From Novakomyces olei (lineage: Eukaryota), in contig JADEYG010000003.1 of the NCBI GenBank assembly GCA_016906335.1, positions 868,001 through 932,000 of the forward strand: DNA of 64,000 nt, read 5' to 3'. The notes under the pieces were generated by a model. That model made no database searches. It was not told where the DNA came from and worked only from the letters and a program-made list of their open reading frames with translations. Numbering within the stretch: the first letter of the stretch is position 1; each line of letters opens with the position of its first letter. Of the stretch, positions 8,741 through 63,467 are shown piece by piece. The translations under genes were made by a program, and so were the position numbers.

Positions 8741-10966
<2,226 letters not shown>

Positions 10967-17304: not shown

Positions 17305-17667
17305 GGCGATCCCTGCAGTATCGCGGCAACCGCTATATACTACCAAGCCTGTATACAATATATGTTCTATATATATCTCGATTTACATAATTTAATATAT
17401 TAATGGTGCACCCCTTTGTCTTACCCGATCGGGATTAATCCCCGCCAACGGTCAGACAGTAGTAACTGCTTCTATTTTCGTGGTTGCTGGGGCAGGCGTG
17501 CTGAACGCGGCATCCCCACGCCACAAAATATGAGGGCACATTATATAAGGAGACGAACGACCCCTGGTCGAGATCTTCTATCCCTGCGCATTCTTAATTC
17601 TCCCCCTTTGGCGTATCACCTGTGGCGGGAAGTAAACTGAGGAACAGAGATCTTACACTTTGACGAC

Positions 17668-18906
17668 ATGCTACCCGTAAAATCCCTACTTGCTCTGGCC
17701 GCCGTGCTGGCTGGCGCGGATGCCGCTGCTGTGACCACGCGTGTGGCCTCTGGCCATGTCGGCCAGTGCTACAGCAGCTTTCCCTCTTCTTTTGGGATTG
17801 TGATTGCAGAGATTGCCAACTCGACTTCTGCTCCTGCCACTGCAGCTAGCGCTACCGCTGCTCCGTCTGGAACAGTAATTGGCCAAATCACGGACGGTCA
17901 AATACAAGCTGCTTCCACTGGAATGGCTGCTCTTTCTTCAGCTGCTCCCAGCACTGCCGGAGCAGTCACACAAATCACAGACGGCCAAGTCCAGGCGCCG
18001 ACTGGCCAACCTTCTCCAGCACCTCCTACTGCCACTAGTGCTCAGGGAGCAGTCACTCAAATCGGTGACGGTCAGATCCAAGCGCCAACTGGCTCTCCTT
18101 CTCCGGCCCCGGCTTCTTCCGCTCAGGGAGCAGTCACTCAAATCGGTGACGGCCAAATCCAGGCTCCTACTGGCTCTCCTTCTCCGGCTCCAGCTTCTTC
18201 CGCTCAGGGAGCAGTAACTCAGATTGGCGACGGTCAGATCCAGGCGCCAACTGGCTCACCTTCTCCGGCTCCGGCTTCCTCTGCCGGAGGAGCAGTCACT
18301 CAGATCGGTGACGGCCAAATCCAGGCTCCTACTGGCTCTCCTTCTCCAGCCCCGGCTTCTTCCGCTGAGGGAGCAGTCACTCAGATCACTGACGGACAAG
18401 TACAGGCGCCTACTGGAAGCCCTGCTCCTTCCTCTGCTCAGGGTGCTGCCTCCCAGATCACTGATGGTCAGGTCCAGGCTCCTACTGGCACAGCTGCTCC
18501 TCAGGCATCCGGAGCTGCTTCTCAAGTCGGTGATGGTCAAGTACAGGCTCCCGCTTCTACTGCCGCTACTACCGTCACCAGCGGTGGGCACGAGTTTGAC
18601 CTTGCGTACGTGTGCTCTAGCAACTCGACGCTTACAATGACTCTGGAGAACGGAATCCTCAAGGATAACCGCGGACGCTTGGGCTACATTGCCTCCAACC
18701 GTCAATTCCAGTTTGACAACCCAGTCCAGGACAATGCCATTATTGCCAACGGCTTTGCTGCCTGCAGCAACGGTACATTAAGTCTTGGAAACAGCACTGT
18801 CTTCTGGTCTTGCAAGTCTGGCAGCTTCTCCAACTTGTACGACCGTTCTATCGGTGGACAGTGCACTCCAGTACAACTGCAAATGGTCAGCCTGCGATCC
18901 TGCTAA
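17668..18906 (+). CDS. PIR (protein with internal repeats) covalently linked cell-wall protein, 9 repeats
   Basis: Signal peptide; nine Q[IV][GT]DGQ[IV]QA repeats (core unit 27 aa / 81 bp); C-terminal Pir domain TLENGILKDNRGRLGYIASNRQFQFD...FWSCKSGSFSNLYDRSIGGQC, ending in Cys. Confidence 0.93.
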   Translation: MLPVKSLLALAAVLAGADAAAVTTRVASGHVGQCYSSFPSSFGIVIAEIANSTSAPATAASATAAPSGTVIGQITDGQIQAASTGMAALSSAAPSTAGAVTQITDGQVQAPTGQPSPAPPTATSAQGAVTQIGDGQIQAPTGSPSPAPASSAQGAVTQIGDGQIQAPTGSPSPAPASSAQGAVTQIGDGQIQAPTGSPSPAPASSAGGAVTQIGDGQIQAPTGSPSPAPASSAEGAVTQITDGQVQAPTGSPAPSSAQGAASQITDGQVQAPTGTAAPQASGAASQVGDGQVQAPASTAATTVTSGGHEFDLAYVCSSNSTLTMTLENGILKDNRGRLGYIASNRQFQFDNPVQDNAIIANGFAACSNGTLSLGNSTVFWSCKSGSFSNLYDRSIGGQCTPVQLQMVSLRSC

Positions 18907-20332
18907 GCGTAGAAGACGTAATGCACTCTGCAAAGGCTATGGTTCTTGAATTTTGTTTACCAAAATATTCTGTACTTTTGAATCATTCTTGCCCCGATCT
19001 GGTGAGATGATGTTCTATTCTAAATATTTTCTACATATTTTCTTATTTAAACAAACCGCCAACTCTAGTTGCAACAAAGTCGTCACGGCGACATTGTTGT
19101 ATTCTTGCAGTGGTGTGCTGCAAAAGCATAGCTCAGCCGGTTTAATTTTGGCGGCTGAAGCCTTTTTCTTGCATTTTATATTTTATTCTATTTTATTTGA
19201 TGACGAAACTTCATAGTGTATATTTACATAGTATAATTAAATTTTATGAATATAGCTGTGGCTTTATAGATGTCGGAAGGGTTACATTACAAGTTGAACA
19301 GAAAAATATATATGTATCTAGAGATAAATTATAGATAAATAAATATATTAGAGATAAATATGTAGGACGTTGCTATCGCCAATTGTTCTGCAATTATGTC
19401 AGCAACTATTAATCCGCGCCTACTTGAACTAATAGTTATGAGCAATAATGTGCAGTTTCAGGCTCCAGTGAGTCGCAACTTTGGCCGACCGATCTATTAA
19501 GCAAACAGCTTCCATAAAAATGGACTCTACCGCTTTGTCGGCATTAATTGCTGTTAATTTGCCGCAGTGAATTTAAATAGATGACTGAACCCAAACTTTT
19601 GTTTTCTCACCGAACGATGACAGCAGAGCCGCAAAGGACTCTTGGACGCATTAATCACTACAGCAATCTTACACAGGTAAATGTACTACAAAAAATAATA
19701 AAATCAAAAATCATAAGCTGACAACTAAAGAGCAGAAAAACAAAATTTGGGGCATTAAAACCCGAGGCATTCTTGGCCCTGGCAAACAATATTTGAGCAA
19801 ATATATAACATTCGTATTCGCGATTGGTCACGGGCAGCAAAGAGTCTGGTCCCTGCCTTATAAACGTAATGAACCTTTTCAGCAATCGCTATTGGCAGTC
19901 ATGTGGTCGTCGCGTCACATGATGGCGCCGCTTCAAATGAAAATAAGTACCTCAATTTATAAGGGAGCGTAAGAACAGTCGTGAGGACAATTGTGCGCCC
20001 TTTTTCCTATTTAACGGAGCGGGAATTCAACACTCCAACTTAAATTCCTCAGCAACCAATCCTCTCTCCACTGCTTGCTCAAACCTCCAACCTAGGGACA
20101 ATCGCTTTGAAGAAGGCACCGGTTCCTTTAGGTACAGGATAAACGAAACAAAGACGAAAGCCGGTATTCAACGATCACCAAGCTAAACAAAAAGGGCTCA
20201 AATTTTCAAAATCGTCTGGGACTTGAACGTCTTTTACGCTCTACCTCCAGACTTATCTCCCTCAAGCAATTTAGATAAAGCAACACGAATCGAAGTCAGC
20301 TTGGAGATACAAATATCCCTACCAGACTCGAG

Positions 20333-21814
20333 ATGCTGAAGCTCTTACTCGCTTCTGCCCTGGCATTTACTGCTGCCCATGGCCTCGTTGTACCTTCGCG
20401 GCTGAACGCTAAAGGTGAGGTACCTGGCTGTGCGGACCATTACGATATGGCCTTTGGCATTGCTGTGATTCCTGCTCATCTCAGTGGCAAAGACGATTAC
20501 AAAAAGAGTTCATTGATTACACCAGAAATGGCAGCAGAAATGAACAAAAACAGGACCGATAACGATGCCGACGCGAAATATGGTGATAATGACATATCTA
20601 ATGATGATGATGATGATGATGATGGCAACTCTCTGTCTAGCGCAGACCGCTCAAGTGCAATTTTGGCGGGAATGCATAGTTTTCGCCGTGCAATTGTGGC
20701 TAAGGGCCCCGCTGTTGACAAGAGCCACTCTCATTATCGTCGTGAAGTGGCTGCACAGATCCCCGATGGCCAGATCCAATTGCAGCAAGGTTTCAATGGC
20801 AAACTAGCCGCCTCACAGATTGCTGATGGCCAGGTCCAGATTCTCAAGGGCAAGGGCAAATCGCCGGAAGTCGAAGAGTCTGATGATGAAACTACACCAA
20901 AGCCAAAAACGATTATAATGGCATCGCCTAGTAAAGCCCAACCTCCATCAGCCAAGCAGGTCCTGGCAGAAGTGCCCAAGAACCAGATTCCCAAGGCAAA
21001 GCTCATTGTTATGCCTTCGAAGAAATTGAAGGGCGGTCCTGGAACTGGGGACAGTCGTAAATCTGGGGCCAGTCCTGAGGAGTCCAGTCCCAATACAAAG
21101 CCTGACATCATCATTCTTAAGCCTGTTCCGTCCAAGAATGGCCCGGTTAATCAGATCGCCGACGGCCAGATTATCGTCCCTCTCCAGCCGGGCCCCGTTA
21201 AAACCGGACAACAGCTGAACGAGAAACCAATTGGCGAAATTGCCGACGGTCAGCCTCAAGCGCCCCGTCGACGCCTTTTGCATCGTCGAGCAATTTCATC
21301 TTTGATGCGCCGTGCATTCGCCCCCCATGGTGGAGCGCCGGATGTTCCTTCGGACCCCCAATCGCCAATGGAGAAGACGGCAGAGCATGCCTTTTCCGAC
21401 AAGCTGGGCAGTGTTTTTACGTCCGGTCAGATCGATGCTGATGTGAGGGAATATGAGGCACAAGACTCTGGGAAAGCAATGAACCTGGCCTATGTTTGTG
21501 CTAGCAAACTGGCAGATTCTACTGTGCCTTATATGAGTTTGAATTACGGGAACCTTATGGATTCACGTGGCCGTTATGCTTATATTGGCAAGTCGCGCAA
21601 GCTCACGTTTGCCAACCCGGTGCATCACGATGCAGTGGTGACGTCTGGATTCTCTGTCTGCTCAAACAGTACGATCGGACTCGGTGGGAGTACGATTTTC
21701 TATTCCTGCGTGGGAGTTGGAGATAAGCGTGAGGAAAGCGGAGTTTACGACCGGCCTGTAGACGGGTACTGCCATCCAGTGCACCTTGAGATGGTGTCTA
21801 TTACGGATTGCTAG
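20333..21814 (+). CDS. Divergent PIR-family cell-wall protein with 4 degenerate repeats
   Basis: Signal peptide; QIPDGQIQ, QIADGQVQ, QIADGQII, EIADGQPQ; C-terminal domain LAYVC...LMDSRGRYAYIG...FSVCSN...FYSC...YDRPVDGYCHPVHLEMVSITDC is colinear with the upstream PIR. Confidence 0.88.
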   Translation: MLKLLLASALAFTAAHGLVVPSRLNAKGEVPGCADHYDMAFGIAVIPAHLSGKDDYKKSSLITPEMAAEMNKNRTDNDADAKYGDNDISNDDDDDDDGNSLSSADRSSAILAGMHSFRRAIVAKGPAVDKSHSHYRREVAAQIPDGQIQLQQGFNGKLAASQIADGQVQILKGKGKSPEVEESDDETTPKPKTIIMASPSKAQPPSAKQVLAEVPKNQIPKAKLIVMPSKKLKGGPGTGDSRKSGASPEESSPNTKPDIIILKPVPSKNGPVNQIADGQIIVPLQPGPVKTGQQLNEKPIGEIADGQPQAPRRRLLHRRAISSLMRRAFAPHGGAPDVPSDPQSPMEKTAEHAFSDKLGSVFTSGQIDADVREYEAQDSGKAMNLAYVCASKLADSTVPYMSLNYGNLMDSRGRYAYIGKSRKLTFANPVHHDAVVTSGFSVCSNSTIGLGGSTIFYSCVGVGDKREESGVYDRPVDGYCHPVHLEMVSITDC

Positions 21815-23340: not shown

Positions 23341-23455
23341 AGTCTTGACTAGTTTGATCAGTGACTAGTTTGATCAGTCTTGACAAGTCTTTGACAAGTC
23401 TTTGACAAGTCTTTGATCAGTCTTGACAAGTCTCGACAAGTCTTTGATTAATCTC
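23341..23455. repeat. Degenerate 10-11-mer minisatellite (TTGACAAGTCT / TTGATCAGTCT) just upstream of AIM21
   Basis: About 10 degenerate tandem copies. Confidence 0.8.
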
Positions 23456-23582
23456 GAGGACTAATCCTTGTCTGAAAGCTTTGACTTATCGATCCTCACT
23501 TACCCCTATCATCCAGCTCTGTCCTGGTCAAACTGACCATCGATATACGACAGACAGCCGATACATCTGGCGAGACAGAGAA

Positions 23583-26500
23583 ATGACGGGCACAGGCACT
23601 ACGGCGGACGACCGTCCACACATCCCCAAAGTCCCACAGCGGCCGCACATTCCTGCGCTTGACGGAGACCAGCCACGGGAGATCTCGTCGCCTAAAGTCT
23701 CGCGTCCGCTCGCCTCGAGATCCGCGTTTACTACGGCCGCGCCCGGCCCAATGTTCAGGGTGGGCGCCTCTGCCAACAACAGCAGCTCGAGTCTAAGTAA
23801 CCTTGCTGCCGGCGATGACTCGGCTGACTCGGCCGAGTCTAAGGCTCAAACGGCAACGGCCATTGGCCGTAGCGACAGCCCAACAACTCGGTCGCTTATC
23901 GACAACGCGAGCCTGGCACACGCTCGATGGCTGCTGGACAATATGCAGCAGCAGCAGCAGCAGCAATTGGCCGCCGCGAGACGCTCAGTATCGCCAGAGC
24001 TGCAGAGACCTGCACGTGATCCTCTGCGCCGCTCGCTCGGGAGCCATTTGGCACTCGATCATGCGAATATTCCGGACACTGTGCCGTTTGACGAGTCTGA
24101 GTTTCATCGCGACACGACAACACCGACTCTGTACGACGACGCGCACATTGACGCAGATGGAGAACGGCATTTTCACTCTGCAGGGCACTATTTTGCCTCT
24201 GCCGGAGAGGGCAGTGGCACTGCCCAAAGCTCTGGCAATTCCGTAAACTCTGGCAGTGGCTTAAACTCTGGCAGTGGCCTGCAAAAGTCTCCACTCGGCC
24301 GCAGCCGATCACAGCCGCCTCGCGAAGTCAGAGTGCCGCTCGATTCGAGGTCGGGAGCAGTTCCCCTTGTGCCTGCGGAGAGAGAGTCCGGGATCCCCTT
24401 TGACAGGCGGCAGTATGTAAACTCTGTAAGCTCTCCGCTGCCTCGTAACGCGACCCCGCAAGACTTGTACGACAAGGACCAGCCAAGGGACGATTTAAAC
24501 ACGGGCAGCGGCATTGGTATTAGCAATAGCAATAGCAATAGCAATAGCAATAGCAACAACAAAACTGGCAGCGGTAGTGCCACTGACAAGAGTAGTGGAA
24601 GGGCGCCAGGCAGTAGAGGAGCTCCGCCCGAGTGGTGGGCAGAGCCGACGCTGGAGATTATTGACGGAGTGGCTAAAGGCCGATGGAGGGAGCGGACGGT
24701 GCCGAGTTCGCATATGGGCAATCCTGCAGAGTACAGGCCGACGGGCAACCATGGCGACTTTGCCGGCCTTACGGGTCTTACTATAGGAGACCAGAGACCA
24801 GTGCCACACTATAGCGAGCAGATTGGGGGCAATGAAGAGCTGAGGCCGAAAGGAGTGCTGATTACTCGTGACGGAGAGGGAACTGCCGGTCTCACTTTTG
24901 ACGATGCTTCTGCGCCTTTGAGAACGATTGAAAAGGCAAACTTGCTGCCGCAGATGCAGCCGCTGACTCGGCGGCAGTCTCAGCTGGCGCAGATGCATGT
25001 GGAACAGGATTTACGTAGATTAAAGGACCTGAAAGCAGCAATGATGCGGCGTGAAGGGTTGGGCGGAGACCTGCCTCATTCAGCGTGGAAGGATATGTCG
25101 TCAGTGGCAGTTGAGGATGAGAGAGATTTGGCCTTGATGGAGCACCACGCTGCCTCCTTTGACCAGCTGGACCAGCTTGCTCGTGAGAGGGAGGCTGAAC
25201 TGCTGCGCCAGCTCGGCAGTTCTGGCAGAGGCCAAGCTGGGCTGCCGTTTGATGTAGTCCGTAACCCTAGAGGCAGCAGCAGACTGGACGAGGGGGACGC
25301 AGCAATAACCCCAGAGCAAAATGCTCTTGATATCGAGTCCTCAGAGCTGGCAAAGCAGCACAGGGAAATGGCAGCTAGAGGCCAAGTGCCAGAGCCACAG
25401 GCCGAGTTCAAGCCTCCTCTGGATAAGAACGTGCTTGACCAGTTACTGCTGGCTGGCGATGTGGATGTGCCTTCGCCTACTGTCGCCCATGACGCTCGTG
25501 ACCGTAAAGTCGTCTTTACACCAGACAGCCTGGCTTCTGCCAGCCAAAAGTCTCGTGCGGCAACGACGGGGTTAGAGAGCGCTAGTCCCGTGGCTGCAGG
25601 AGCGTACAAGCCTCCTACCAGTGCAGAGGTCAGCAGTAAACTCGACGAGTCTGCTCGAGGCCAGGCCGATAGTTTAAAGGCAGTAGGCGACAGAGGTGGC
25701 AGGGAGTCTAAGCAGGAAGCTAAGCAGGAGTCTAAACAAGAGTCTAAACAAGAGTCTAAACAAGAGTCTAAACAAGAGTCTAGACAAGAGTCTGAGCAGG
25801 AGGCGGTTGCTAAACCGGCCGAGCACGAAGAGGCCAAATCTGCTACTGCAGAACCTTCCTCCTCTTCTCGCTCATCCGTTCCAAACAACAAGTTTTCGTC
25901 AATAAGAGCAGCTTTTGCCAAGAATTTGGAGTCAAAGTTCAAAGCGGGCATGACTGGTCCACCTCCGTCACTGTCTAAACCTAAACCGGCTCCGTCAGAG
26001 AGTATTAGCAGCACAAACACAGAGGCAGATTCCACCGCTGTTGCCGGACTGAGCGATGTTCGTAAAGGCCGAGCAAGAGGGCCTCACCGTCGAGCTCCTG
26101 CTGGTAATGCTGCTTCTGCTGCTGCTGCTGAAACGAGCCAGCATAAGGGGTTTGATAAGGCTACTTTAGGTGCCTCACCTGTAATTACTTTGGTGGCTTT
26201 TGAGAATGGATCTGTGGTTTCGCATGAGCCAGCAGCGCCCCATAATAACACGCACTCTAAACCCGTACAAGACCAGCGTCAGAGCCCAAGTCAGTCACAG
26301 CCAAGTCACTTGCCTGAGATTAGCCAGGAAAAGCCAGCAGAGACACTTGTAGCGGAAATAGACGCTGGCGAAATGGAGGAAACGGTCCCAGAGGCAGTCG
26401 CTTCCGCAGAAGTTCCTCAAGGCGTTGAAGCTGAAAAGTCCAAAATGGTACATGGAGGCAAGGCTAGTGAGGATGCAAGGACTCTTGTGTCGGAAGTTGA

Positions 26501-26903
26501 TGCTGGTGCAATGGAGGAATCAGTAGAAAAGGCCGAGGAGGCTGCTGAAGTAAAGTCACCCCCTGTTCCTCAACGGCCGTCGAGCCTTGGCTCTGATTCA
26601 AATCCTGAAACTGCTCTCACAGCCGAGAAATCTGTTCGTGAAAAGAGTATCGACGAACGAGTATCTCCCGCAGTTCCGCAGAGGCCTTCAGGCGTAAAAG
26701 AAAAGGAAGAATTGCCGCGAGTTCCACAGCGGCCTTCTTCTTCTTCTTCTTCCTGCCCAATTGTTCCAGCCCGGCCAGTTTCAGAGGCCAAAGAAGAAGG
26801 GGCAAACATACAAGACGATGTGAGCTCTATTCACAAAGCCACAGTATCTCACGAGACCTCAACTGAGCCTCATGAGGCAGCTGGAGAATTGGAGTCTGCG
26901 TAA
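23583..26903 (+). CDS. AIM21: Aim21-like actin-patch / capping-protein regulator (low complexity, disordered)
   Basis: KFSSIRAAFAKNLESKF followed by CPI-like motif LSDVRKGRARGPHRRAP; several PxVPQRP SH3 ligands; QESK tandem repeat; first in-frame ATG at 23583. Confidence 0.7.
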   Translation: MTGTGTTADDRPHIPKVPQRPHIPALDGDQPREISSPKVSRPLASRSAFTTAAPGPMFRVGASANNSSSSLSNLAAGDDSADSAESKAQTATAIGRSDSPTTRSLIDNASLAHARWLLDNMQQQQQQQLAAARRSVSPELQRPARDPLRRSLGSHLALDHANIPDTVPFDESEFHRDTTTPTLYDDAHIDADGERHFHSAGHYFASAGEGSGTAQSSGNSVNSGSGLNSGSGLQKSPLGRSRSQPPREVRVPLDSRSGAVPLVPAERESGIPFDRRQYVNSVSSPLPRNATPQDLYDKDQPRDDLNTGSGIGISNSNSNSNSNSNNKTGSGSATDKSSGRAPGSRGAPPEWWAEPTLEIIDGVAKGRWRERTVPSSHMGNPAEYRPTGNHGDFAGLTGLTIGDQRPVPHYSEQIGGNEELRPKGVLITRDGEGTAGLTFDDASAPLRTIEKANLLPQMQPLTRRQSQLAQMHVEQDLRRLKDLKAAMMRREGLGGDLPHSAWKDMSSVAVEDERDLALMEHHAASFDQLDQLAREREAELLRQLGSSGRGQAGLPFDVVRNPRGSSRLDEGDAAITPEQNALDIESSELAKQHREMAARGQVPEPQAEFKPPLDKNVLDQLLLAGDVDVPSPTVAHDARDRKVVFTPDSLASASQKSRAATTGLESASPVAAGAYKPPTSAEVSSKLDESARGQADSLKAVGDRGGRESKQEAKQESKQESKQESKQESKQESRQESEQEAVAKPAEHEEAKSATAEPSSSSRSSVPNNKFSSIRAAFAKNLESKFKAGMTGPPPSLSKPKPAPSESISSTNTEADSTAVAGLSDVRKGRARGPHRRAPAGNAASAAAAETSQHKGFDKATLGASPVITLVAFENGSVVSHEPAAPHNNTHSKPVQDQRQSPSQSQPSHLPEISQEKPAETLVAEIDAGEMEETVPEAVASAEVPQGVEAEKSKMVHGGKASEDARTLVSEVDAGAMEESVEKAEEAAEVKSPPVPQRPSSLGSDSNPETALTAEKSVREKSIDERVSPAVPQRPSGVKEKEELPRVPQRPSSSSSSCPIVPARPVSEAKEEGANIQDDVSSIHKATVSHETSTEPHEAAGELESA

Positions 26904-27674: not shown

Positions 27675-29574
27675 TCAAGCGTGTACGGTAACGTATAAAG
27701 GCGTCGTTGCAGTAACGTATTCCACGTTTTGAGCATTATTAGCAGCTTGACTGGTAACAGCTGAGTCTGCAATAGCTGTAGCCGCAGTAAAAAGAACCAG
27801 TACTTTTGTCGCTACACCATTAATGGTAGAAGCGACCTCTTGGTACGCCCGTGCTGGCGGTATAGTGTAATTTTCGTCCGAAAGCGATAATACTGAAGAA
27901 GTAGTCGGTGATTGATTGAAAGTTGTGGTTTCAGAAGCAGGTTTTGAGGGAGAGTCGGTGGTGCTTGGACTTTCCAAAGTACTGCTAGAAGTCGGCTGAG
28001 TAGGTCCTGGACCTTGAGCCTCACTAGTAACAGACGGCTGACTGGCAGGAGTAGTGTTAACAATGGTTGTTCCAGTGTCGGGAGCAGAATTTGATGCGTC
28101 ACTGGTAGTATGACTAGGGGCAAAGGTAGTAGAAGGGATTTCGGCCGAAGACCTACCAGTCGAGGCACTAGTAGCAGGACTTGTACTTAGATCAGAATCC
28201 CACGGAGCCACTGTAGCATCTTGGGGACCGTCCTGAACGGGATTGTTACCTGGCAGAGCGTCCATTTTGCCAAAAATACGATCATTAGGTCGGGCGGATT
28301 CAGATTCTGTTTGTAAGCCAGGAAAATAACAAAAGTAAGCATTTGTTAAAACATTTGAAACAATTATTTGAAATATATTCAATCAGATCAGATCACAGTT
28401 CGGAATAAAATTTGAAATTGAAGTGCGTTACCTCGGCGGCAGGCATAGGCATCAGCCATGCTTTGTAGCTGTAAGACATCGCAGTCTGTAATGAGACCAG
28501 AATCGCTCGTGCAACGATCTACTGCTTGCTGCAGTACTCCGCTTTGCCACCCATTGATAAAATCAGCATGGCTTCCATAGCCCTGAATTGTTAGTGTCCT
28601 AAGTACAATACAAATGAACAATGGTATTCCTACCGTCGGATCTCCCATTGAGAATATAAACGGCTGATTGCCATGCCACATAGAATCAAAAGGCGAAGTC
28701 TCCCAGATAACTTCATAAAATAGAGAAATTAACCGTTTTGGATGAGACTGAGGGCAAACACCGGCTCCTGGCCCCGTGGGATAAGCAACGTGAGACTTGT
28801 GATCTTCAGAATCAACATTTACCCCGTCCCAGCACGATGGAAAATAGATTTGCTGCCGAACACCATTCGTACAAGTCACATTGGGCAGACCGTGTGTTTC
28901 TGGAAGCATAGAGTTTGTTGCATAATCCAGGCAACTATTTCGTTAGAGACTGATCAATAATAACGGTATTTGAAAGAAAGCCCTGAATTGGATCAAAACG
29001 CGAATAATTCAAAAAGTAATACAATAAATAGTTAATAGATGAGTCAATTGGCAAAGTAAAATCCAAAAGCCAATTTGAAGATTCCTATGATAAAGGAAGA
29101 AATGATTTCTTACTGAAAAGTAATAAAACTGCTCTCGAGGCTATTGTCATAAGATCTCTTCATCGGATTCCCCGCTAGCATTCGGAAATTGTCCGGGAAC
29201 GCAAGCACCGGTTCCCCGTCATTGTGCCTCTGTAGGTAATAAATAACGAAGCCGCCTGTTTGCGCAACCGATGTAAAAGAAGAGTCTGTTCTGTCATGAT
29301 AATATAAAGAAGGTACCCAGTAAAGACTGTGGTCTTGTACGGCTTGGCATGAAGTGCATTTAGAATTGACGAGCGACTCGTGTGTCACTGTATAGTCTGC
29401 GGCAGAAGACCCTACAAAGACGTGCATGTGCGGAGCGATCTGACCTGGAAATACGAGAGGATCCGCTCGTTCGTACATTACATTTCCGGGACAATTCATA
29501 CGGAAGAACGCTGCCGATGGAAGGGCTGTCAAAATAGCCAGCAGGACGGACGGTAGCAGTGACCTGAACAACAT
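27675..29574 (-). CDS. Secreted DUF1996-domain protein with Ser/Thr-rich C-terminus, 4 exons
   Basis: Signal peptide MLFRSLLPSVLLAILTALPSAA; ERADPLVFPG, CTSCQAVQDHSLYWVPSLY, FPDNFRMLAGNP, IYFPSCWDG, GDPTGYGSHADFINGW. Confidence 0.9.
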
Positions 29575-30488
29575 ATTGTCTAGTTGCTTTGCCCTTTTCT
29601 TGCTTGCCTCTCTCGCCTTTCCCTTTTTTCGCTTTAGCGGTTGGAAAAAGTTCAAGATTGAAGGTTCTGGCTGGCACTTTAAAATATTTCAACAGCAAGA
29701 AGGCTGACACATTGTCGCATTGTCGCACGGTGGCTAGCACGACGTGACTCATTAGGCTTTGGCCGCGTATTTCATCAATCATTCGCGTCGCTTTGTCACG
29801 AAGAGGTTGGATATACCCAAAACGGTAATTCTATAAGCAATACGTGGGCTGGCGATTTTACTTGCATTTAAGACGCGTCGGTTTATTGAGTCCAAACCTA
29901 GTCTTGCATATTACATTGCTTAAATCTATTATATGTATAGGTCTGTATTTAGACACGAGTACTAATAAAGAAAAAGGCGCTGCGACATTTTCTCAGGCAA
30001 CGTGCTTAAGTTTAATAGGATAGAATCTATTTAGCTATATGGAAGTAAAATCTGCACTGAAGATGACGACCAAGACATTATAAAGTGCAATGCATGAGCT
30101 GAAATTCTTTCGTCGATACTGTAAATGCTTACACAATTTTGGTACAGATATGTACAAGAAATATTTAAATTCGTTGCCAAAGCTCTTTTCCGATACAACG
30201 AGATGTTGCATAGAATACTTTTGCCTATTTTCAAACCAAGAAGACAATTTTTAAGAATTTTTAAGGGTTTTTGAAGGATCCAGACGCTGTCAGGTCTCAT
30301 GAGAGACCGTAAAGTTCCATAGTTGCAACAACCCTTGGGCGGAAGCAATTTTTAATATCCTGATTGTTTGAACGACACGCCGAATGGGGTAAGATAACCG
30401 CCTGAAGATAAAGAGCCACCAAACCCAGGATAGCCGATCGCCGGTATCAAAAGTACAAAAGCAGGGAGGAATTAAAAGTATCAATATT

Positions 30489-35777: not shown

Positions 35778-36810
35778 TTGCCGCGATTATGTGGGAGATG
35801 GGACCAGAGTCAGTGATGCATATAGCTCACGTTATATATAGCGATAGGCCCCCACTGACATGTCACATAAATAGAATAGTACTGGTTATACATACAAGCA
35901 ATATGTTACTTTGATAGATATCAAGTAAGTTTAAGGGCCATTCAAGTTCAGCTAAATAAATTCAAGCGGTATAATCAGCAGCGCTGTACTGAAAACAAAG
36001 ACGTAAACGAATACCGATACGAGGCGAGTTGTGCTATTTTACACTATCATACAATGGAAAGAGTGAATGGCCTAAATCATCGTGTTTATTGAATTGCTAT
36101 TTTGACCGGCGTACAAAAAAAATTGAAGATAAAAATTTGTTTTAAGCGCCAGCGTGGGCGAGTTCAACCCTATATTATACTCTTATAGATCTTTCCATCA
36201 AACTCTTTTCAGTCAGACAGTTGCTTGACCATACACAGCCCCATATGCCATAATATAAATGCAGAAAAAGATACAGATTAAAGATGAATACAGAAAACAA
36301 GCCAATATAAAAAAAATTAGAAATGCTATGATGAGCGCGAGAAGCAAATGGTAAAAAGAATAGTGAACACAAATCAAACACAGACTCTGAACAGTTGTTG
36401 ATTTTGATGTCTTGCGCTCTTTCCATTTCATTGTAAATTGAACCAAAAGAAAAACATAATTTGCTATAAAGACAAATTTGTAATCGATGTCACGAATGAA
36501 CGTTCAACAGGCTATGGCCAGAGGGCCAGATACACAAAGGACGTCCATCATTATCGTAACCAAAAAAAAAAAAAAAAGCCATAGTTCATTCTTCACAATT
36601 CATAGAAAGCTGCCCACAAGTATTCAAGAGATTGCGTCGGCATCCGTAACTTCCCTTTTCCCTTTACCTTCTCACAAAAACGAATCACACTGATGAAAAT
36701 TACACAAATGATGCAGACAAATTAAAAGAAATTTAAAAGCAATCAACTATTTGAAAAGACCGTAGTCTGGTCAAAGAAAACTTTTAGCATAGAATAGCAG
36801 GTAAAATGCG

Positions 36811-39800
36811 TCAAAACAGGCGCGACTTGTGGAGATCTTCATCGGTATAATCGCCCAGGAAACTGTTGTGCCCATCAAAGAAGGCAGACCCCTCATCTTT
36901 GACTTGGGAAGATAGTCCGCCGTCTTGAATACGATCCTCAGTATGAAGCTGGCTCCTGTCTCCCGGCTCTTTGATCCCATTAAGCTGTACATGATGAAGA
37001 CTGGGATCCGTGTGCCTTGCCTCGTGACCCGCCGAATCCACTCCGTATCCGAAATCCGTCTGTAATCCAGCCAGATCCGGGACGCCATTAATAAGCAAAT
37101 CCGGATCGTAAGCCGACTGCATGGCGTTATTGAACAGAGCTTCCGGCGTCACTATGCCACGTGAAGCAGATGAAATTGCTTCCGTTCCAACGTCTTTTTC
37201 TTTATGATTATTCTCGATCTTTGCGCTAGACCGAACACTTGCACTGCCTCCACCAAGACTGAACCCTAGAGAAGAGGTTCCCTGGGAGACAGACGTCGGC
37301 TCCGACGCTCCGGGCTCTCCGGGCAATTGGGAAAAAGTGGAAAGATGTTGCGAAGAGGCAGAAGACGATCGCGAAGCATGGTCGAGTACTCCGTGTACGT
37401 TTTTACCCTCATCATTGTTGTTGTTACTGTCGAGGCTATGCTCCGTGTGATGGAAGAACTCGTTGTCAGGAGAGTGTCCATGCTCGTCGTGAAAGTACCC
37501 AATCTCTCGACCAGCAGAGTCGTTAAACTGTGCATTAAACTGGCTGTCCATAACATATCGGCCAGCGTCATCAAACTCTGCTTGGCGGTGGTGCCACACT
37601 GCGTCTGCAAGGTTATCGTCGTTTTCAGAAGGGGTTTTATCCTTGTTTTTACTGTTGCCAAACCCTGGCTTTTGCCTCATTTCTCTGCTGTTGGGCTTCA
37701 CGGATCCCCGTGTATCATCGTACACTCGTGCCCTTGGCCGCTGCTCGAGTCCGTGGTTTACCTTGATGTCACGGTAAGCGTCTCCAATGTATATATTCCG
37801 TCCGCCTCTCTTGTAATGAGTCCGTTCATGCGCACGCAGGTTATCTGCACGGGAGAAAAGACGGCCACAGCCGCTAATAGAGCATACAAAGTGGCGTTCG
37901 CCGGTATGAGTCTTTGCGTGTCTCCGTAAATGCTCAAGACGTTTAAATCGTCGAGAGCATTGCTCACAAGCGTGAGGCTTATCGTGCAGAGCTGCTACTG
38001 CCGCAGCAGCAGCTGCTGCAGACGAAGAAGAAGCTGAAGCAGACGAAGAAGAAATAGCTGCTAGAGACGGGATTGTTCCAGTGGGCGATAAATTAGAAGC
38101 ATCCTGATTTACAGGCTGACGAGCGGCAGGAGCCGGGCTGGAAGCTGTAGAAGAATTCCTCAGCAGGGCCAGTCTCTGTGGATTAGTGTTTGTCGTCATT
38201 CTAGCAGGAACAGCAGCAGAGGATTGAGTCCGTCTCAGTCTGGGCTGAACGGCAGCGGCCATGCTGGACGGAGAAGACCGTGAGGTGGAGGTAACGGGCC
38301 CACCAGAAGACTGAGAGTGCTGCATGGAGAACGATCGATACAGGGAAGCAGCCTCCATATTCGGAGAAGAAGAGCCCTGGCTGCTGTGCGACGACAGTGG
38401 AGGCGAAGGGCGGGTCTGTGAGTGATGGAGTATTGAATGAGCTGCTGCTGCTCCCGCAGTAGACTGACGATACTCGTCTGTGAACATGGCAGGGACGGCA
38501 AGAGGGTTTTGTAGGCTCTGTAGGCTCTGTTGATCAAACAGATCTGCACTAGAGATATGGGGCTGGGACTGGTCTTGGCTTGCAAACAAATCCATACTCT
38601 GTGTCTGGTCAAGGGCCGCCTGATCAAGGTTGCCTGCTGCCGAGTCGAGGACTCGTCTCGCCGGTCGGGAAGGTAAGTGAGCCTCTGGGGACAGTACATA
38701 GCTCTCCTCGCCTTTATCTCGGGGAGAAGAGACAGAGGAGGCGTTGAACGGGGCATAAGACGAAGGGAACCCTGCGCCTTCAGAGAAGGAAAACGTCATT
38801 GGCGAGCTCATAGCCTGTGTGAACGCAGAGGCAGAGGAGGAAGAGAACTTTTTTCCGCTCAATGACGCTCGTCTCATTGGCGAAAAGGGGGTCGCTGAAC
38901 CCGTCCATTGCCGACTGCTGCTGGCCGACTGAACGGACAGCGGAGTCGAAAGCGAAGCGACAGATACAGGAGACGATTGGCCATTGTTATTATTATTATT
39001 GTTATTATTATTGCCGTTGCCTTTATTATTATAATTATTATTGTACTGCCAGGGTGAAGAGTAGTACGGGTTGACTCCACACTCTTGCAGCCGTGGTGTA
39101 TGCACTTCGCCAGCCCGCAACGGTGCTGATCCTCCCACAGAACTGTCAATCTGTCTCTTGAGCGGAGACGTGAGACTGGTGCTCCTGTAGAGTCCAGACA
39201 CGGCAGAGCCTCCGCCACTGGCGGCTCTGCTCCTTGTCTCGGTCGGACTCGCCAGCATTTTAGCTGGCGAGCTGGCTTTTGGTGTCGAAAAGACTCGAGC
39301 ATCCACCGCGTCTGCTCCACTGCTTATACCCGCTCCAGAGCCTATACCCTCTTGTAGCTGTGCTCTGCCAGAACTGCTGTACCGACGGCGATTAAAGTAG
39401 GACACTGGCGGCGGCGGCGGCACTTTTTGTGCCACGAGCGGAGCAGCACTGCTCCGGCCGGAATCGCCGATTCTGCTCTGTGCTTCTGCGCCGGACGAGC
39501 CAAGCGCGACGCGTCTCGACCTGTCCGGTGTATGATTCAGTATCGTGTCTATCGCGTTGCCGAACCTCGGGTTACGCGTCGTGGCGTGAGAATCGAGTGG
39601 GTGAGCGTTCTGGAAACTGCCTTTCCCCGCACCAGTCGTGCCGGGTAAGCTGCCTTTTGGCCGCGCTTCGATCTTTGCCCTGTGAGGCTGTACGTACAGC
39701 GCCGAGGGCTCTAACGCGCCAAACTCGCCGGCAATTCCCAAATCTTCTGCGCCTAAAAAGCCTTCAATCTGTGCGTCATTGTACGCGAGAGCCGTGTCCA

Positions 39801-39966
39801 TAAACCCGCCGGAGGCTGAGACATTGGCAGCTGCGGGCAGGTATCGCCGAGAAAGCGCTTCATCGCCAGTATCCGCTTCAGAATGGTTCTGGTGGGGTAA
39901 AGACCACGAGGAAGTCGAATGGTGCCGCTTCAATGGAGGCGGAGTGAGTAAATACGCGTCATCCAT
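36811..39966 (-). CDS. C2H2 zinc-finger transcription factor (two fingers; Msn2/BrlA class)
   Basis: CEQC...[24 protein letters not shown]...[21 protein letters not shown] inside a 1051-aa Ser/Ala/Asn-rich ORF. Confidence 0.9.
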
Positions 39967-40064
39967 AGCAATGGCAGCGGCCCAGCCGCTTTCAACGCTA
40001 CTCGGACGCGCTTTGATCCGTCGGGCTACAAAAGTAGGGAAAATAGTATATGAATATTTAAATG

Positions 40065-40140
40065 TATATTTAAATGAATCAAATAGTATATGAATAAAAT
40101 AGTATATGAATAAAATAGTATATGAATAAAATAGTACAAG
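40065..40140. repeat. Tandem 17-mer (AAAATAGTATATGAATA) in the upstream region of the C2H2 gene
   Basis: Three adjacent copies at about 40081-40130, another near 40040, and a duplicated GAATATTTAAATGTAT segment. Confidence 0.7.
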
Positions 40141-41638
40141 AATATTTAAATGTATTTAAATATATACGACACACTAACACTACACTACACGTTTTGTTGC
40201 TAGTATCGCGCAGTGGAGGAGATTTGCAGTATAAAATCGGGATGAAAATGTGTACCGCTATTAATCAACACTATAATAAACACATAATAAACACTAAACA
40301 CATTATAAACACTAACCCGCGATAAAGACGCGTTTACGGTATACGGCAGTTGGCGCGCAGGCGGTCGGGCGGTTTAACAGCCATTATTTGCTCAATTGCT
40401 CGCTACATGGCCGAGAGCCTTACTAACCTGTGCCCTCGAGAACTATAGATCGTGTATGACAGTTTCTGTATATGCGTTATTCATGTTGGAGCGCTATTCG
40501 CGGGAGCCATTGCGTGAGACTATAGGGAATCGAGTCGTGTACTAGCTTTGGGATAGGGACACGCTAGCACTATTGGCGTAGTCGCCGGTAAATGTTTGGC
40601 CTCAATCTCCATGGGCTAACGATTGCGGGCAAGTAATGTGGCACATGTACCGTTACAAATCAGGAAAAGTAATGCTGCTGCAGCCGAGTAGCACAGTATC
40701 CTTGAATCTCATGTATTACAACCACTTTAGGCGCCCGCATTATATAGTCACAAGTCATACAGCGCATGGGTCGAAAGTCGTAAAGGGCAAAGTCCTAAAG
40801 GCCCTTACCTGCCATGGTTGGTGATTAGGGGAAACATGATTGGGCATTCTTCCTGTAGCAAACCCAATGCCTTATTCTAATTACGCCTTCATGTTTGAGC
40901 AAGGGCCGTTTGTGTCTCCTACAATTGACACTTACGCATCTTTTGCGTATTGATATGTATGGAAGTTGTATTGCAATTTACACTAGTATTGTAAATGACG
41001 CTGCAATGTAAACAAGTCTTTTTTATTGCGTTTGAGACAATATCCAATTACATGGAATTCGTTGTCCAACTGCTGCGCTGTGACCAAAACTCGTCACATG
41101 TCCTTGTGTGATGTGCATATGACCTGTGCGTGCAAAAGAGAGAGTGTGTGTATGCAAACTGAAATTTTTGACGCGCACTGAACACAGTCGCAAGCCCGCG
41201 CGCGTCCCACTCGCACCCGTCTCACGCACAGTCCTCTTGAAGCGAATAATATAAGCAGAATAAATTATTTTAAATAAATCTAATGTATAAAGCGCACATC
41301 CTTCGGGCCAGCCATTAGACTTCAATCTTTTGCGGCATTGGCTAACGCTTTACGCACTCGCAATTCAAGTGGCCGCTAATAAATTCTCCCAAGGCTAACC
41401 GGGAATCGTGACTCTCATAATTTTACGTTACTTCGCATGGGAGAGTTATAGCGGCGATATGTCAAGCTGAGGCTATCAAGTAGCAATAAATGTCGAATTA
41501 TTCTATGACTAGTGTAGTATTATTTATTTCTTTATTTTGTGATTAGTGTAGTATAGACAAATTTTGTTTATTACCAAAATACGGTGAAGGCACACACGGC
41601 GGATCGTACACGCAACAGCATCGAGTTAAAAGCAAACC

Positions 41639-52164: not shown

Positions 52165-54104
52165 CTAATCCCAATACTTTACAAGGCCTAAAACAAGTTA
52201 GCGACATTTATGAAACTCAATCCCAACATACCATCACGAAGACCAGCTGTGGCCACCTTGGACGTCTCCTGCGGATTCCACGCCAAAGAAATACACGGCC
52301 CTTCGTGTGCCTTTATCTTACTCAGTAATGCACTTGTTTTCCAATCTAAAATACAAGTCAGCCATGTAAAAATATTATTTGATAACAAATAAGCGTACCC
52401 CAAAAACAGGCATATCCTCCAGCATCGCCAGACATAATGAAACGACCATCAGGCGAGAAATTTACTTGCACGGCATAACCTCCGCAACCCTCACCCTTGA
52501 AGATCTTGCGACGGTGACGGCGGAACTTGTCTTCTGCCTGAAAGACCAGGATTTCATTCGCGAGAGACTGGGCAGCGACGTATTTCCCAGAAGGATGAAG
52601 GGCCACTGATGGCATAGAGTGCATTGTGGGATCGGCCACAAATTTGATAGGCACTGGGATCCCATACTCCCAAACTCTCAAAGACTTGTCGTCTGAAGTA
52701 GTCATAAACCGCCGATTGCGGTCCACAAAAGTCACTGTATTTACGGGTCCAAGATGATGATCGTACTCTTGCACAATTTCTGCTGTTCGTGTATCAAACT
52801 GTACAATCTTCTTGTCAGACATGCCGGCCAGGAACTCGTGCTTGTACTCCTCCGTAGGGTTGAACCGGACACAATGAGGCAGCTTCCCAGTCGTAAACCG
52901 GCTCACTACTTGACCCGTCTCTGTATCCCATAGCTTGATGTACCGATCAAAGCTGGCCGTCAAAAATTGCCTTCCGTCGTTGGTAAAACAGGTATCGGTA
53001 ATAGTCTTTTTATGGCCAGAGTAGCTACGCAGTAATTCTCGTTCGTGGAAACAGTCCCATAGCTTCGCTTTACCATCCATTCCGGCAGACAGTAAAAGGT
53101 GGCCATGCCTTGGGAAAAACTTGACTGTCGAGACGCCTTGGGGATGAGCGTTCCACGTTTTTATAGAGCGCTTAGGTAAAAAGCATTCTTGCTCTCCAGG
53201 ATCTTTGTCCAAGTTTATGTCCAAATCCTGAGGGACATGCATGTACGTCCGCCCCAAGTAATCGTACATACTAGAGCCATGGAATACCGATTTTTCTGTG
53301 TCCTTTTTACGCGTCTCCACGGGGTTTGCTGCTTGTTCTATAGGCTTTTCGACTTTTTGTTCCTCCTCATCCTCCTCCTCCTCCTCCTCTCCTTCTTCAT
53401 CATCTTCATACCCCGGACTAGACTCTTCAGCAACGTACCGAGCCCAGGGGCCCTTGTACTCTCCGTCGCCTTCGACGACAGCCACGTCACCAAAATCTTC
53501 TCGTTTCCTTTTGAGCGCTGAAATCACCTCTCTCTCTGTCCGTGAATTTGTTACTGTAGCTGCAATTTCTTGTGCTTTATTCCGATCGCCCACGTACCGA
53601 TTTTGGCCAATCGCACTCACCGATGGATCAGCGGCAAAGCCATAGCGCTGAAACGATCTGTGCTGTTCGTTAAACGCTTCTGGTGCAAAGAACTGATCTT
53701 CTGCGTAGCCTATTAAATTAGTAAACCTGTTTAAAGATAAAAGTCTCTTTTTCAAGGTCAGGGTATCTTCATTTCAGACATTACCTGTAGGAATATTCCT
53801 GCGATCCAAACTGCTCTTTGCTCCAAAAGGCGTCTCTGGTCCAAGACTCGGTTTGTGCATATCTTTCCAAGCGACGTTATACGTCATCTCGTTATTCGCA
53901 GTGTTGGCGACAATCATTTTCCTGTGCTGAGCGTCCTAAACGTTAGTTTGGCAATACTATGCTGGTCAGTACCTCCAGGCTCACTGAGGGCGCTGCTTTT
54001 ACTTGGCCCATATTTTGAGCCACAGATTTCCGCTGAGCATTCGCATTTGACGGCACCGCGTCCGCCTCTACGCTATCGTCGCTGCCGTACCCTTCAACTA
54101 ACAT
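52165..54104 (-). CDS. PRP17: Pre-mRNA splicing factor Prp17/Cdc40 (WD40), multi-exon
   Basis: DYLGRTYMHVPQDL, HLLLSAGMDGKAKLWD, QEYDHHLGPVNTVTF, MHSMP, WNPQETSKVATAG, ends VKYWD*; start MLVEGYGSDD. Confidence 0.94.
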
Positions 54105-54137
54105 GCCGTGCTACCATTAGTCGCAGCGCAATTGCTC

Positions 54138-54379
<242 letters not shown>

Positions 54380-62335: not shown

Positions 62336-62406
<71 letters not shown>

Positions 62407-63467
62407 TTAATTTATTAATTTATTTATTTATTTATTTATTCACTGTTTTCCAATGCTCAAATACAATCGCCCCGCTCGATCTAACACTGACAGCTTCGTT
62501 TTGCTCGCACGAGTTTTCTGCTATTGATTTGACTAAATGGCGCGAGCATTTGACAACTGGCGCAGACCACCACCCTGCAAACCTCTCGCTCTCCGATATA
62601 ACAGACTACCTTTGTTTGTCACCAAAACCTGTAATCTTTGTGGACAACACGTCGAGCGAACAAGTAGCCGCCTTTTACCCCACTCTGCTGAACCGCAAGA
62701 TTCATATTGCAACGCCCAACAAGAAAGGGTTTTCTGGAGGCATTGAGCTTTACAAGAGGATACAAGCGGCACAAGTGGAAACGGGTGCACTCGTTTATCA
62801 CGAGGCGACAGTTGGCGCTGGCCTTCCCGTACTTTCTACACTGCGAGACCTTGTCTTGACAGGCGACGAGGTCCATCGTATTGAGGGCGTACTGAGTGGG
62901 ACAATGAGCTACTTGTTCAATAACTGGAGCCCCTCTGGACACGAAGGCACTGCCTCTTTTTCCGCTATGGTTACACAGGCCAAAGAGAATGGTTACACAG
63001 AACCTGACCCTCGTGACGATCTTAACGGTATGGATGTTGCCCGTAAAGTTACTATCCTGGCAAGACTGGCAGGGCTTGAATTGGAGGGCCCTTCCGCCTT
63101 CAAGGTGCAAAGTCTTATTCCCGCGGCTTTGGAGTCGGCTGCAAGCGCAGAAACTTTTCTGCAGAAACTACCGGAATACGATGCCGAGTTTTCCAGTGTC
63201 CGTTCGTCCGCTGAAAAGGCCGGAAAATGTGTTCGTTTCGTAGGGAGTGTTGATCTCAGTAATGGTGGGACTGCTTCTGTTGAGATGAAGGAATACGATG
63301 CTTCTAATCCTTTTGCTGCTCTTCAGGGTAGCGACAACCTTATTGCTTTTTATACAAAGCGATACTCACCACAGCCTCTTGTTATTCAGGGATCCGGTGC
63401 CGGTGCCGCTGTGACTGCAATGGGCGTGCTGTCTGATATTATTAAAATGGCAGACCGGCTGGCATAA
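62030..63467 (+). CDS. HOM6: Homoserine dehydrogenase; introns 62076-62120 and 62238-62493 (possible upstream split start at 61952)
   Basis: VNVAIIGVGGVG, VDNTSS, IATPNKK, HEATVGAGLPV, SGTMSY, GYTEPDPRDDLNGMDVARK, GAGAAVTAMGVLSD. Confidence 0.96.
62335..62440 (+). repeat. (TTTA)n microsatellite inside the HOM6 intron
   Basis: Directly visible, with a few TTAA interruptions. Confidence 0.93.

Follow-up and report, generated by a model that had tools for sequence, protein, structure and literature searches.

The regulators closest to the gene considered here are BrlA of the Eurotiales, the Msn2/Msn4/MsnA/Seb1/Mhy1 proteins and SteA/Ste12. In the accessible text of PMC8396895, a finger-2 Ala in place of Gln is the sole difference at the predicted contacts between BrlA and the Msn and SteA proteins, and the origin of BrlA is listed as an open question. 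Four surveys confine BrlA wholly or chiefly to Eurotiales or Eurotiomycetes, or report it as absent from other Ascomycota, and a narrow range is stated in bioRxiv 627414, PMC8396895, PMC6231087, PMC5307856 and PMC3998117; one of the four surveys presents the late emergence of BrlA as a prime case of network rewiring. The database of bioRxiv 627414, as described in the part available, is without Archaeorhizomycetes, and PMC6231087, again as far as its accessible text goes, applied an e-100 cut-off for BrlA similarity, with which relatives sharing only the domain would be missed. BLAST-based "BrlA orthologs" outside the Eurotiales have been claimed and denied by other authors: the available text of PMC6616149 calls a Beauveria BLAST match BrlA and mentions counterparts in yeasts, and that of PMC7531577 has BrlA retained by Histoplasma. 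In the literature outside subscription journals, bioRxiv supplements and alignments presented as figures, we found no paper that defines the Ala- and GGRN-tail family described below; it is not defined in the accessible parts of PMC6282006, PMC11006913 and PMC4479816 (supplement included), and the Geotrichum genome paper mentions brlA 0 times in its text and six supplement files.

The gene lies on the minus strand of a 64,000-nucleotide stretch of DNA (hereafter the window). It is intronless, its open reading frame extending from the first ATG (39966) to a stop at 36811 (36811-39966), and encodes a protein of 1051 residues in which a two-finger C2H2 domain is set in mostly low-complexity, Ser/Ala/Asn/Pro-rich sequence, with about 330 residues C-terminal to the fingers. 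The zf-C2H2 families are its sole matches in a Pfam scan. Contigs from the DNA run of a second study (X2) show 0 differences over 36700-38497, and the fingers and the tail that follows them are thus not an assembly error. A Leu conserved in finger 2 is encoded by a CUG codon. Given a 35-row alignment, AlphaFold models two beta-beta-alpha fingers (mean pLDDT 72) and a tail without confident structure. Searches with the protein returned no family from NCBIfam, generic fingers and nothing more from the PDB, and generic C2H2 clusters only from the atlases; the best 150 matches among 50% representatives were all many-finger proteins and hence uninformative, and the protein collection searched holds no identical copy. 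Elsewhere in the window, long TTTA/TTTG and trinucleotide microsatellites at about 9190-9700, 54100-54350 and 62370-62440 give rise to spurious long open reading frames.

Finger 1 (37906-37968, minus strand, residues 667-687) is a CxxC finger with HxxxH spacing and the helix RLEHLRR, and is joined by the linker TGERHF to finger 2 (37816-37884, minus strand, residues 695-717), a CxxxxC finger with the helix RADNLRA. By sequence and alignment, the finger-2 residue that is Gln in Msn proteins and SteA is here Ala712 (37831-37833, minus strand), as in BrlA, and the basic tail YKRGGRNIY (37789-37815, minus strand, residues 718-726) follows directly after the last His. An earlier note on this DNA had described two C2H2 fingers with such a tail immediately behind them, which the translation bears out (fingers at residues 667-717, tail at 718-726), and the BrlA finger and tail motifs that it gave agree with fetched BrlA sequences. 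Across 35 aligned sequences, comprising this protein, three BrlA and environmental and yeast proteins, neither GGRN nor the finger-2 Ala varies. In a set of 341 proteins, gathered partly by means of the tail so that the counts express co-occurrence rather than natural frequency, 73 of 4519 fingers carry the tail next to them and all 73 are Ala-type, as against 0 of 67 Gln-type finger pairs. Given this invariance and this partition, the tail is not a chance feature. Ala712 departs from the Gln by which Msn2, MsnA and Seb1 are recognised, and the protein has neither the finger-2 Gln nor the STE domain within the same chain that characterise SteA and Ste12.

The combination of fingers and tail recurs in other fungi. 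A first search gave nine matches, among them six proteins with the same fingers and tail, five of which also match the pattern of the protein's N-terminal L[KR]RxHS..W motif. In metagenomes, 60 loci match a DNA pattern written for the tail; 29 are finger genes (eight BrlA-type, two from Geotrichum, 18 from an environmental family and one other, L051), and the remaining 31 pattern matches, apparently due to chance, were set aside. Exact look-up named Penicillium citrinum brlA and Thermoascus aurantiacus BrlA among the BrlA-type loci, and two Geotrichum candidum paralogs (CDO57863 and CDO56771), one of them labelled similar to ACE2. A finger-2-plus-tail profile found 44 matches, 30 with the tail, of which six are named: those of Geotrichum, Magnusiomyces, Sugiyamaella (auto-labelled MSN4), Trichomonascus, Dipodascopsis and Limtongia, with 59-73% identity over finger 2 and tail, and with class Lipomycetes or Dipodascomycetes confirmed for four of the six yeasts. 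Candida Ofi1 may be a further member. The claim of a BrlA-type protein outside the accepted range is supported, the range being even wider than the earlier note had supposed and taking in early-branching budding yeasts. An intron occupies one and the same finger-2 position in environmental-family genes and in L051 (9 of 9 loci inspected). Environmental-family gene models (P0006-P0009, P0194-P0217) read through this intron or stop in it, losing the last His and often the tail, which is one reason why the family is easily missed. The 1051-residue protein displays all the traits of the tail family, namely CxxC and CxxxxC fingers, Ala, tail, N-terminal LxRHHS and an Aim21 neighbour.

That neighbour, an Aim21-family gene (23448-26903, plus strand) about 10 kb downstream, is the sole Aim21 Pfam match in the genome. 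At five environmental-family loci, from about three organisms, the next gene downstream is likewise an Aim21 gene, the motif being found at 5 of the 29 loci. This linkage was missed by a synteny screen with a low-complexity filter, spotted by eye and then confirmed; by our own estimate its probability by chance is about 1 in several hundred. That the gene is orthologous to the environmental family has good support in the N-terminal motifs and the Aim21 neighbour, which are common to both. No neighbours are shared with brlA within 4 kb. The earlier note had also read the 1.7-kb upstream region as fitting a regulated developmental gene. The gap is real (39967-41638, 1.67 kb, from open reading frames and Pfam) but is equally the upstream region of a divergent NTF2 gene, and a promoter scan of 39967-41638 found 0 BrlA elements and no enrichment of BrlA, STRE or AbaA sites (one AbaA site observed against about two expected), so that this argument falls away. 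Further along the window lie two adjacent PIR cell-wall genes (17641-18906 and 20279-21814, by Pfam), one with eight repeat matches, a pair found here in a fungus unlike a budding yeast, as well as an intron-split gene (28388-29688) whose product presumably resembles DUF1996 secreted proteins.

Outside the domain, the protein opens with a pair of motifs common to the environmental family, YLLTPP and a second motif of ten residues (39904-39954, minus strand, residues 5-21), which are candidate phospho-regulatory sites. The second is also present in P0004 and P0005 and, loosely, in two Trichomonascus-type proteins, and the family N-terminal profile matches the protein weakly (residues 10-25, 6.5 bits). 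By motif comparison, VAALHDK, which follows a Ser/Ala run before the fingers (37978-37998, minus strand), is a remnant of a motif that reads VVSALDK in relatives, and GIVTPEAL, C-terminal of the fingers (37135-37158, minus strand), resembles the family's N-terminal GTITPEML, homology between the two being no more than a candidate. Two tests, on motifs both picked after the sequences had been inspected, bear on BrlA. Scored with a family pre-finger profile made without BrlA, the position in register comes 1st of 343 in both Penicillium BrlA and 6th of 343 in Thermoascus BrlA, against ranks of 22-466 in seven outgroup proteins; two Dipodascales-type proteins without the motif nonetheless rank 8th. 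T[IV][TS]P is common to all three BrlA, all six environmental and both Lipomycetes proteins and is missing from all 17 outgroup proteins; it was found upstream of the fingers neither in the 1051-residue protein nor in any of seven Dipodascales-type proteins. Beyond the finger region, these two short motifs are all that links BrlA to the family, a profile of the family's N-terminal region having no significant match in BrlA. We note that Ustilaginomycotina-type proteins (P0225-P0241, some auto-labelled STE12) have a pre-finger PPLIVSS.DK together with Gln and a different tail; they are possibly a basidiomycete sister group.

The genome assembly comprises 14.3 Mb in 15 contigs. Its Prp8 scores 2314 bits on the spp42 chain, 2144 on 9l5r and 1871 on 5gm6; its Prp17 scores 462, 434 and 288 on the fission-yeast entry (spp42), 9l5r and 5gm6, respectively; and its Rpb2 scores 1747 on 3h0g versus 1488 and 1412 on two budding-yeast entries. 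We take the organisms behind these structure entries to be fission yeast, a Chaetomium and budding yeasts. For a Eurotiomycete the filamentous entry should give the highest score, but the fission-yeast chains win, and the genome is therefore read, by similarity rather than from a tree, as Taphrinomycotina-like and not Eurotiomycete-like. Either a Eurotiomycete host or a grouping of the protein with Msn2/Seb1 or another widespread C2H2 clade would have undone the earlier note; Prp8, Prp17 and Rpb2 speak against the former, and against an Msn2/Seb1 identity speaks a separate Msn2-like candidate in the genome. This is a Gln-type, tail-less finger pair (L080, G000:C3:392.8-393.0 kb) with four residues between the finger-1 histidines, which we infer to be the Msn2-like gene of this genome. 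L080 is very divergent, about 25 residues being inserted within the Cys pair of finger 2. A genome search gave no match to the STE (Ste12) domain, its control also giving none, and introns may split the domain. The genome's one TEA/AbaA-type gene is a close neighbour of RPB2, no more than about 3 kb away (G000:C7:2.023-2.032 Mb; L093, L096), and the 2 kb upstream of the TEA/AbaA-type gene contain 0 BrlA elements versus 1.3 expected. Full-length 18S rRNA genes number at least 11, a lower bound with 12 of 24 candidates scored, and are scattered at separate internal positions on contigs C2, C5, C7, C9 and C12 and not gathered in one tandem array.

With Penicillium BrlA as query, the gene is the best match in the genome (E 5.5e-12); a Ste12 query also matches it first, via the fingers and with no STE-domain match. 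The protein matches P0258 BrlA at a BLAST E of 2e-16, essentially over the finger region, and with its negative N-terminal profile the similarity falls short of full length. In a reverse search on six references, a BrlA is the top-scoring reference for 11 of 12 family proteins, by margins of a few bits, P0004 preferring Ste12. The trees rest on 56-69 alignment columns and are without ascomycete Msn2/MsnA or SteA, the Msn2-like row being the divergent candidate of the same genome. A fingers-only tree (48 rows) joins BrlA, the family and the first finger pair of Mortierella with support 90/76; a tree of fingers plus the 12-residue tail (45 rows, three outgroups omitted) joins BrlA and the family alone (90/92, 21 rows); and a mixture-model tree (34 rows, 14 omitted) again joins BrlA, the family and the Mortierella pair (94/90). 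BrlA thus groups with the family in three of four trees with support of 90-94, none of these branches being starred. Once the tail is taken out and the Ala masked, BrlA lies outside the family with Ste12 proteins as its nearest rows, and no placement is rejected (p-AU 0.45 for family plus BrlA, 0.13 for BrlA plus Ste12, 0.42 for BrlA plus Msn2-like). The earlier proposal of a BrlA ortholog or sister lineage stands in so far as the Ala and tail are shared, the gene is BrlA's best match and three of four trees unite the two.

On these data, we lean slightly towards placing the 1051-residue protein in an old ascomycete C2H2 lineage whose fast-evolving Eurotiales branch is BrlA. Such a lineage would be marked by two fingers, an Ala in the finger-2 helix and a K[RK]GGRNx[YF][IV] tail, and its members would be sequence-specific transcription factors; its gene would have been present in the common ancestor of Ascomycota and kept in this Taphrinomycotina-like fungus, the environmental lineage, Lipomycetes, Dipodascomycetes and Eurotiales, having elsewhere been lost or gone unrecognised. 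An Ala-type pair might instead have duplicated before the Ascomycota, the CxxC copy being the one found here and in early yeasts and the CxxxxC copy becoming BrlA; the module would still be old, but the gene would not be a BrlA ortholog. We hold this to be possible, though on the unlikely side. Finger 1 is CxxC in all non-BrlA family members and CxxxxC in BrlA, Ste12 and the first Mortierella pair, and strict orthology requires either that BrlA regained CxxxxC or that CxxC arose twice. The first pair of the four-finger Mortierellaceae proteins has Ala, CxxxxC in both fingers, a BrlA-like linker and a partial basic tail, and joins the clade of BrlA and the family in the fingers-only and mixture-model trees; yet BrlA and the CxxC family have in common a complete GGRNx[YF] tail and two extra motifs that the Mortierella proteins lack, and both types have not been seen in one named species, sampling being thin. 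Many Mortierellaceae proteins (P0161-P0224) have separate Ala-type and Gln/SteA-like finger pairs in one chain, a double pair that is possibly a relic of the duplication that split the lineages.

If BrlA had arisen late from SteA/MsnA-type fingers, an origin suggested in the literature, and had acquired tail and Ala by recombination or convergence, the gene would belong to an independent C2H2 family merely BrlA-like in its action. This is improbable, since it calls for convergence on an eight-residue tail in the same place, on the Ala and on two more motifs; moreover, with the tail included a grouping of BrlA with Ste12 is borderline rejected (p-AU 0.047), and the tail is absent from all 67 Gln-type pairs. 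Consistent with late origin, Ste12 proteins are BrlA's nearest rows once tail and Ala are removed, and reverse searches with non-Eurotiomycete BrlA matches mostly gave SteA in the accessible part of PMC8396895. It is very improbable that the protein is a general stress activator of Msn2/Seb1 type, or a stand-in for SteA fingers, that binds STRE: it has Ala in place of Gln and carries the tail, and the genome has its own Gln-type, tail-less L080, very divergent and inferred to be Msn2. The predicted base contacts are nonetheless the same but for one, the Sugiyamaella member is auto-labelled MSN4, the length and low complexity recall stress activators, a grouping of the protein with the Msn2-like row is not rejected by the fingers-plus-tail test (p 0.146), and the genome search that detected no STE domain, its control likewise negative, would fit a stand-in.

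For the favoured placement in an old BrlA-containing lineage, the established parts of a mechanism are the fold of two beta-beta-alpha fingers and the conserved residues. By zinc-finger recognition rules, which assign an AGGG[G/A] core to such helices, R/E/H/R and R/D/N would read this core, in line with the contacts predicted for Msn, SteA and BrlA. With Ala for Gln, finger 2 would give up the base contact furthest to the 5' side; the basic Gly-Gly-Arg-Asn tail, leaving the finger on that side, would grip flanking DNA and shift preference to BrlA-element-like sites, and may also serve as a nuclear import signal. The long low-complexity arms would activate transcription, and N-terminal LxRHHS and LLTPP may be phosphorylation sites governing location or turnover. 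Among yeast Msn2 paralogs, specificity is tuned by extensions next to the fingers. Com2 and Usv1 favour alternate sites. In A. nidulans, a swap of BrlA residues 320-375 for the MsnA fingers, with residue 376 onward kept, failed (PMC8396895, accessible text); as the kept part should, by alignment, include the tail, the tail alone is insufficient, and a contribution must come from the Ala or from other residues of the fingers. Action at the DNA level is probably BrlA-like. By analogy, the likeliest role would be control of a growth-form or spore transition, a suggestion that we make tentatively and rate at somewhat under even.

The tail family has probably been overlooked, and the BrlA-type switch is probably much older than assumed. 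It is marginally favoured that BrlA is not a late invention of the Eurotiales and is instead the surviving branch of one gene of the last common ancestor of Ascomycota. If so, the gene persists in a Taphrinomycotina-like fungus and in hypha- and arthrospore-forming early yeasts such as Geotrichum, the Ala and GGRN-tail module made a BrlA-type binder from a generic STRE-type finger pair, and the conidiation network of Eurotiales co-opted an ancient regulator lost by most other ascomycetes. A motif-defined family in early-branching ascomycetes would recast the BrlA story as one of retention and co-option in place of invention. Such a family supplies concrete genes for testing, two of them in the culturable yeast Geotrichum candidum, and allows a sharper version of the published MsnA/BrlA finger swap.

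Compared with BrlA of the Eurotiales (P0258 of Penicillium citrinum and P0274 of Thermoascus aurantiacus), the protein shares two fingers with contacts R/E/H/R and R/D/N/A, a CxxxxC finger 2, a KRGGRNx[YF] tail right after the last His and the absence of an intron. It differs in finger 1, CxxxxC in BrlA and CxxC here (a point unstated in the earlier note), in the finger-2 histidines, separated by four residues in BrlA and three here, in its length of 1051 as against about 430-450 residues, in an N-terminal region without significant similarity and in lacking BrlA's conserved post-tail segment. Because finger-1 spacing and full-length similarity both fail, it is a variant lineage and not a strict BrlA. 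SteA and Ste12 share the finger-1 helix RLEHL and most contacts, but have a finger-2 Gln, no tail and a fused STE domain absent here. With Msn2, Msn4, MsnA, Seb1 and Mhy1 it has all predicted contacts in common but for one, Gln against its finger-2 Ala, and a G-rich core site is expected for both. Msn2-type proteins have a longer finger-1 His spacing, a CxxC finger 2 and C-terminal fingers without a GGRN tail. The two-finger proteins of Lipomycetes and Dipodascomycetes, for which our literature search found no function, are shorter (267-766 residues versus 1051) and carry the fingers at their C-terminus, but have the same CxxC and CxxxxC fingers, NLRAH and K[RK]GGRN tail.
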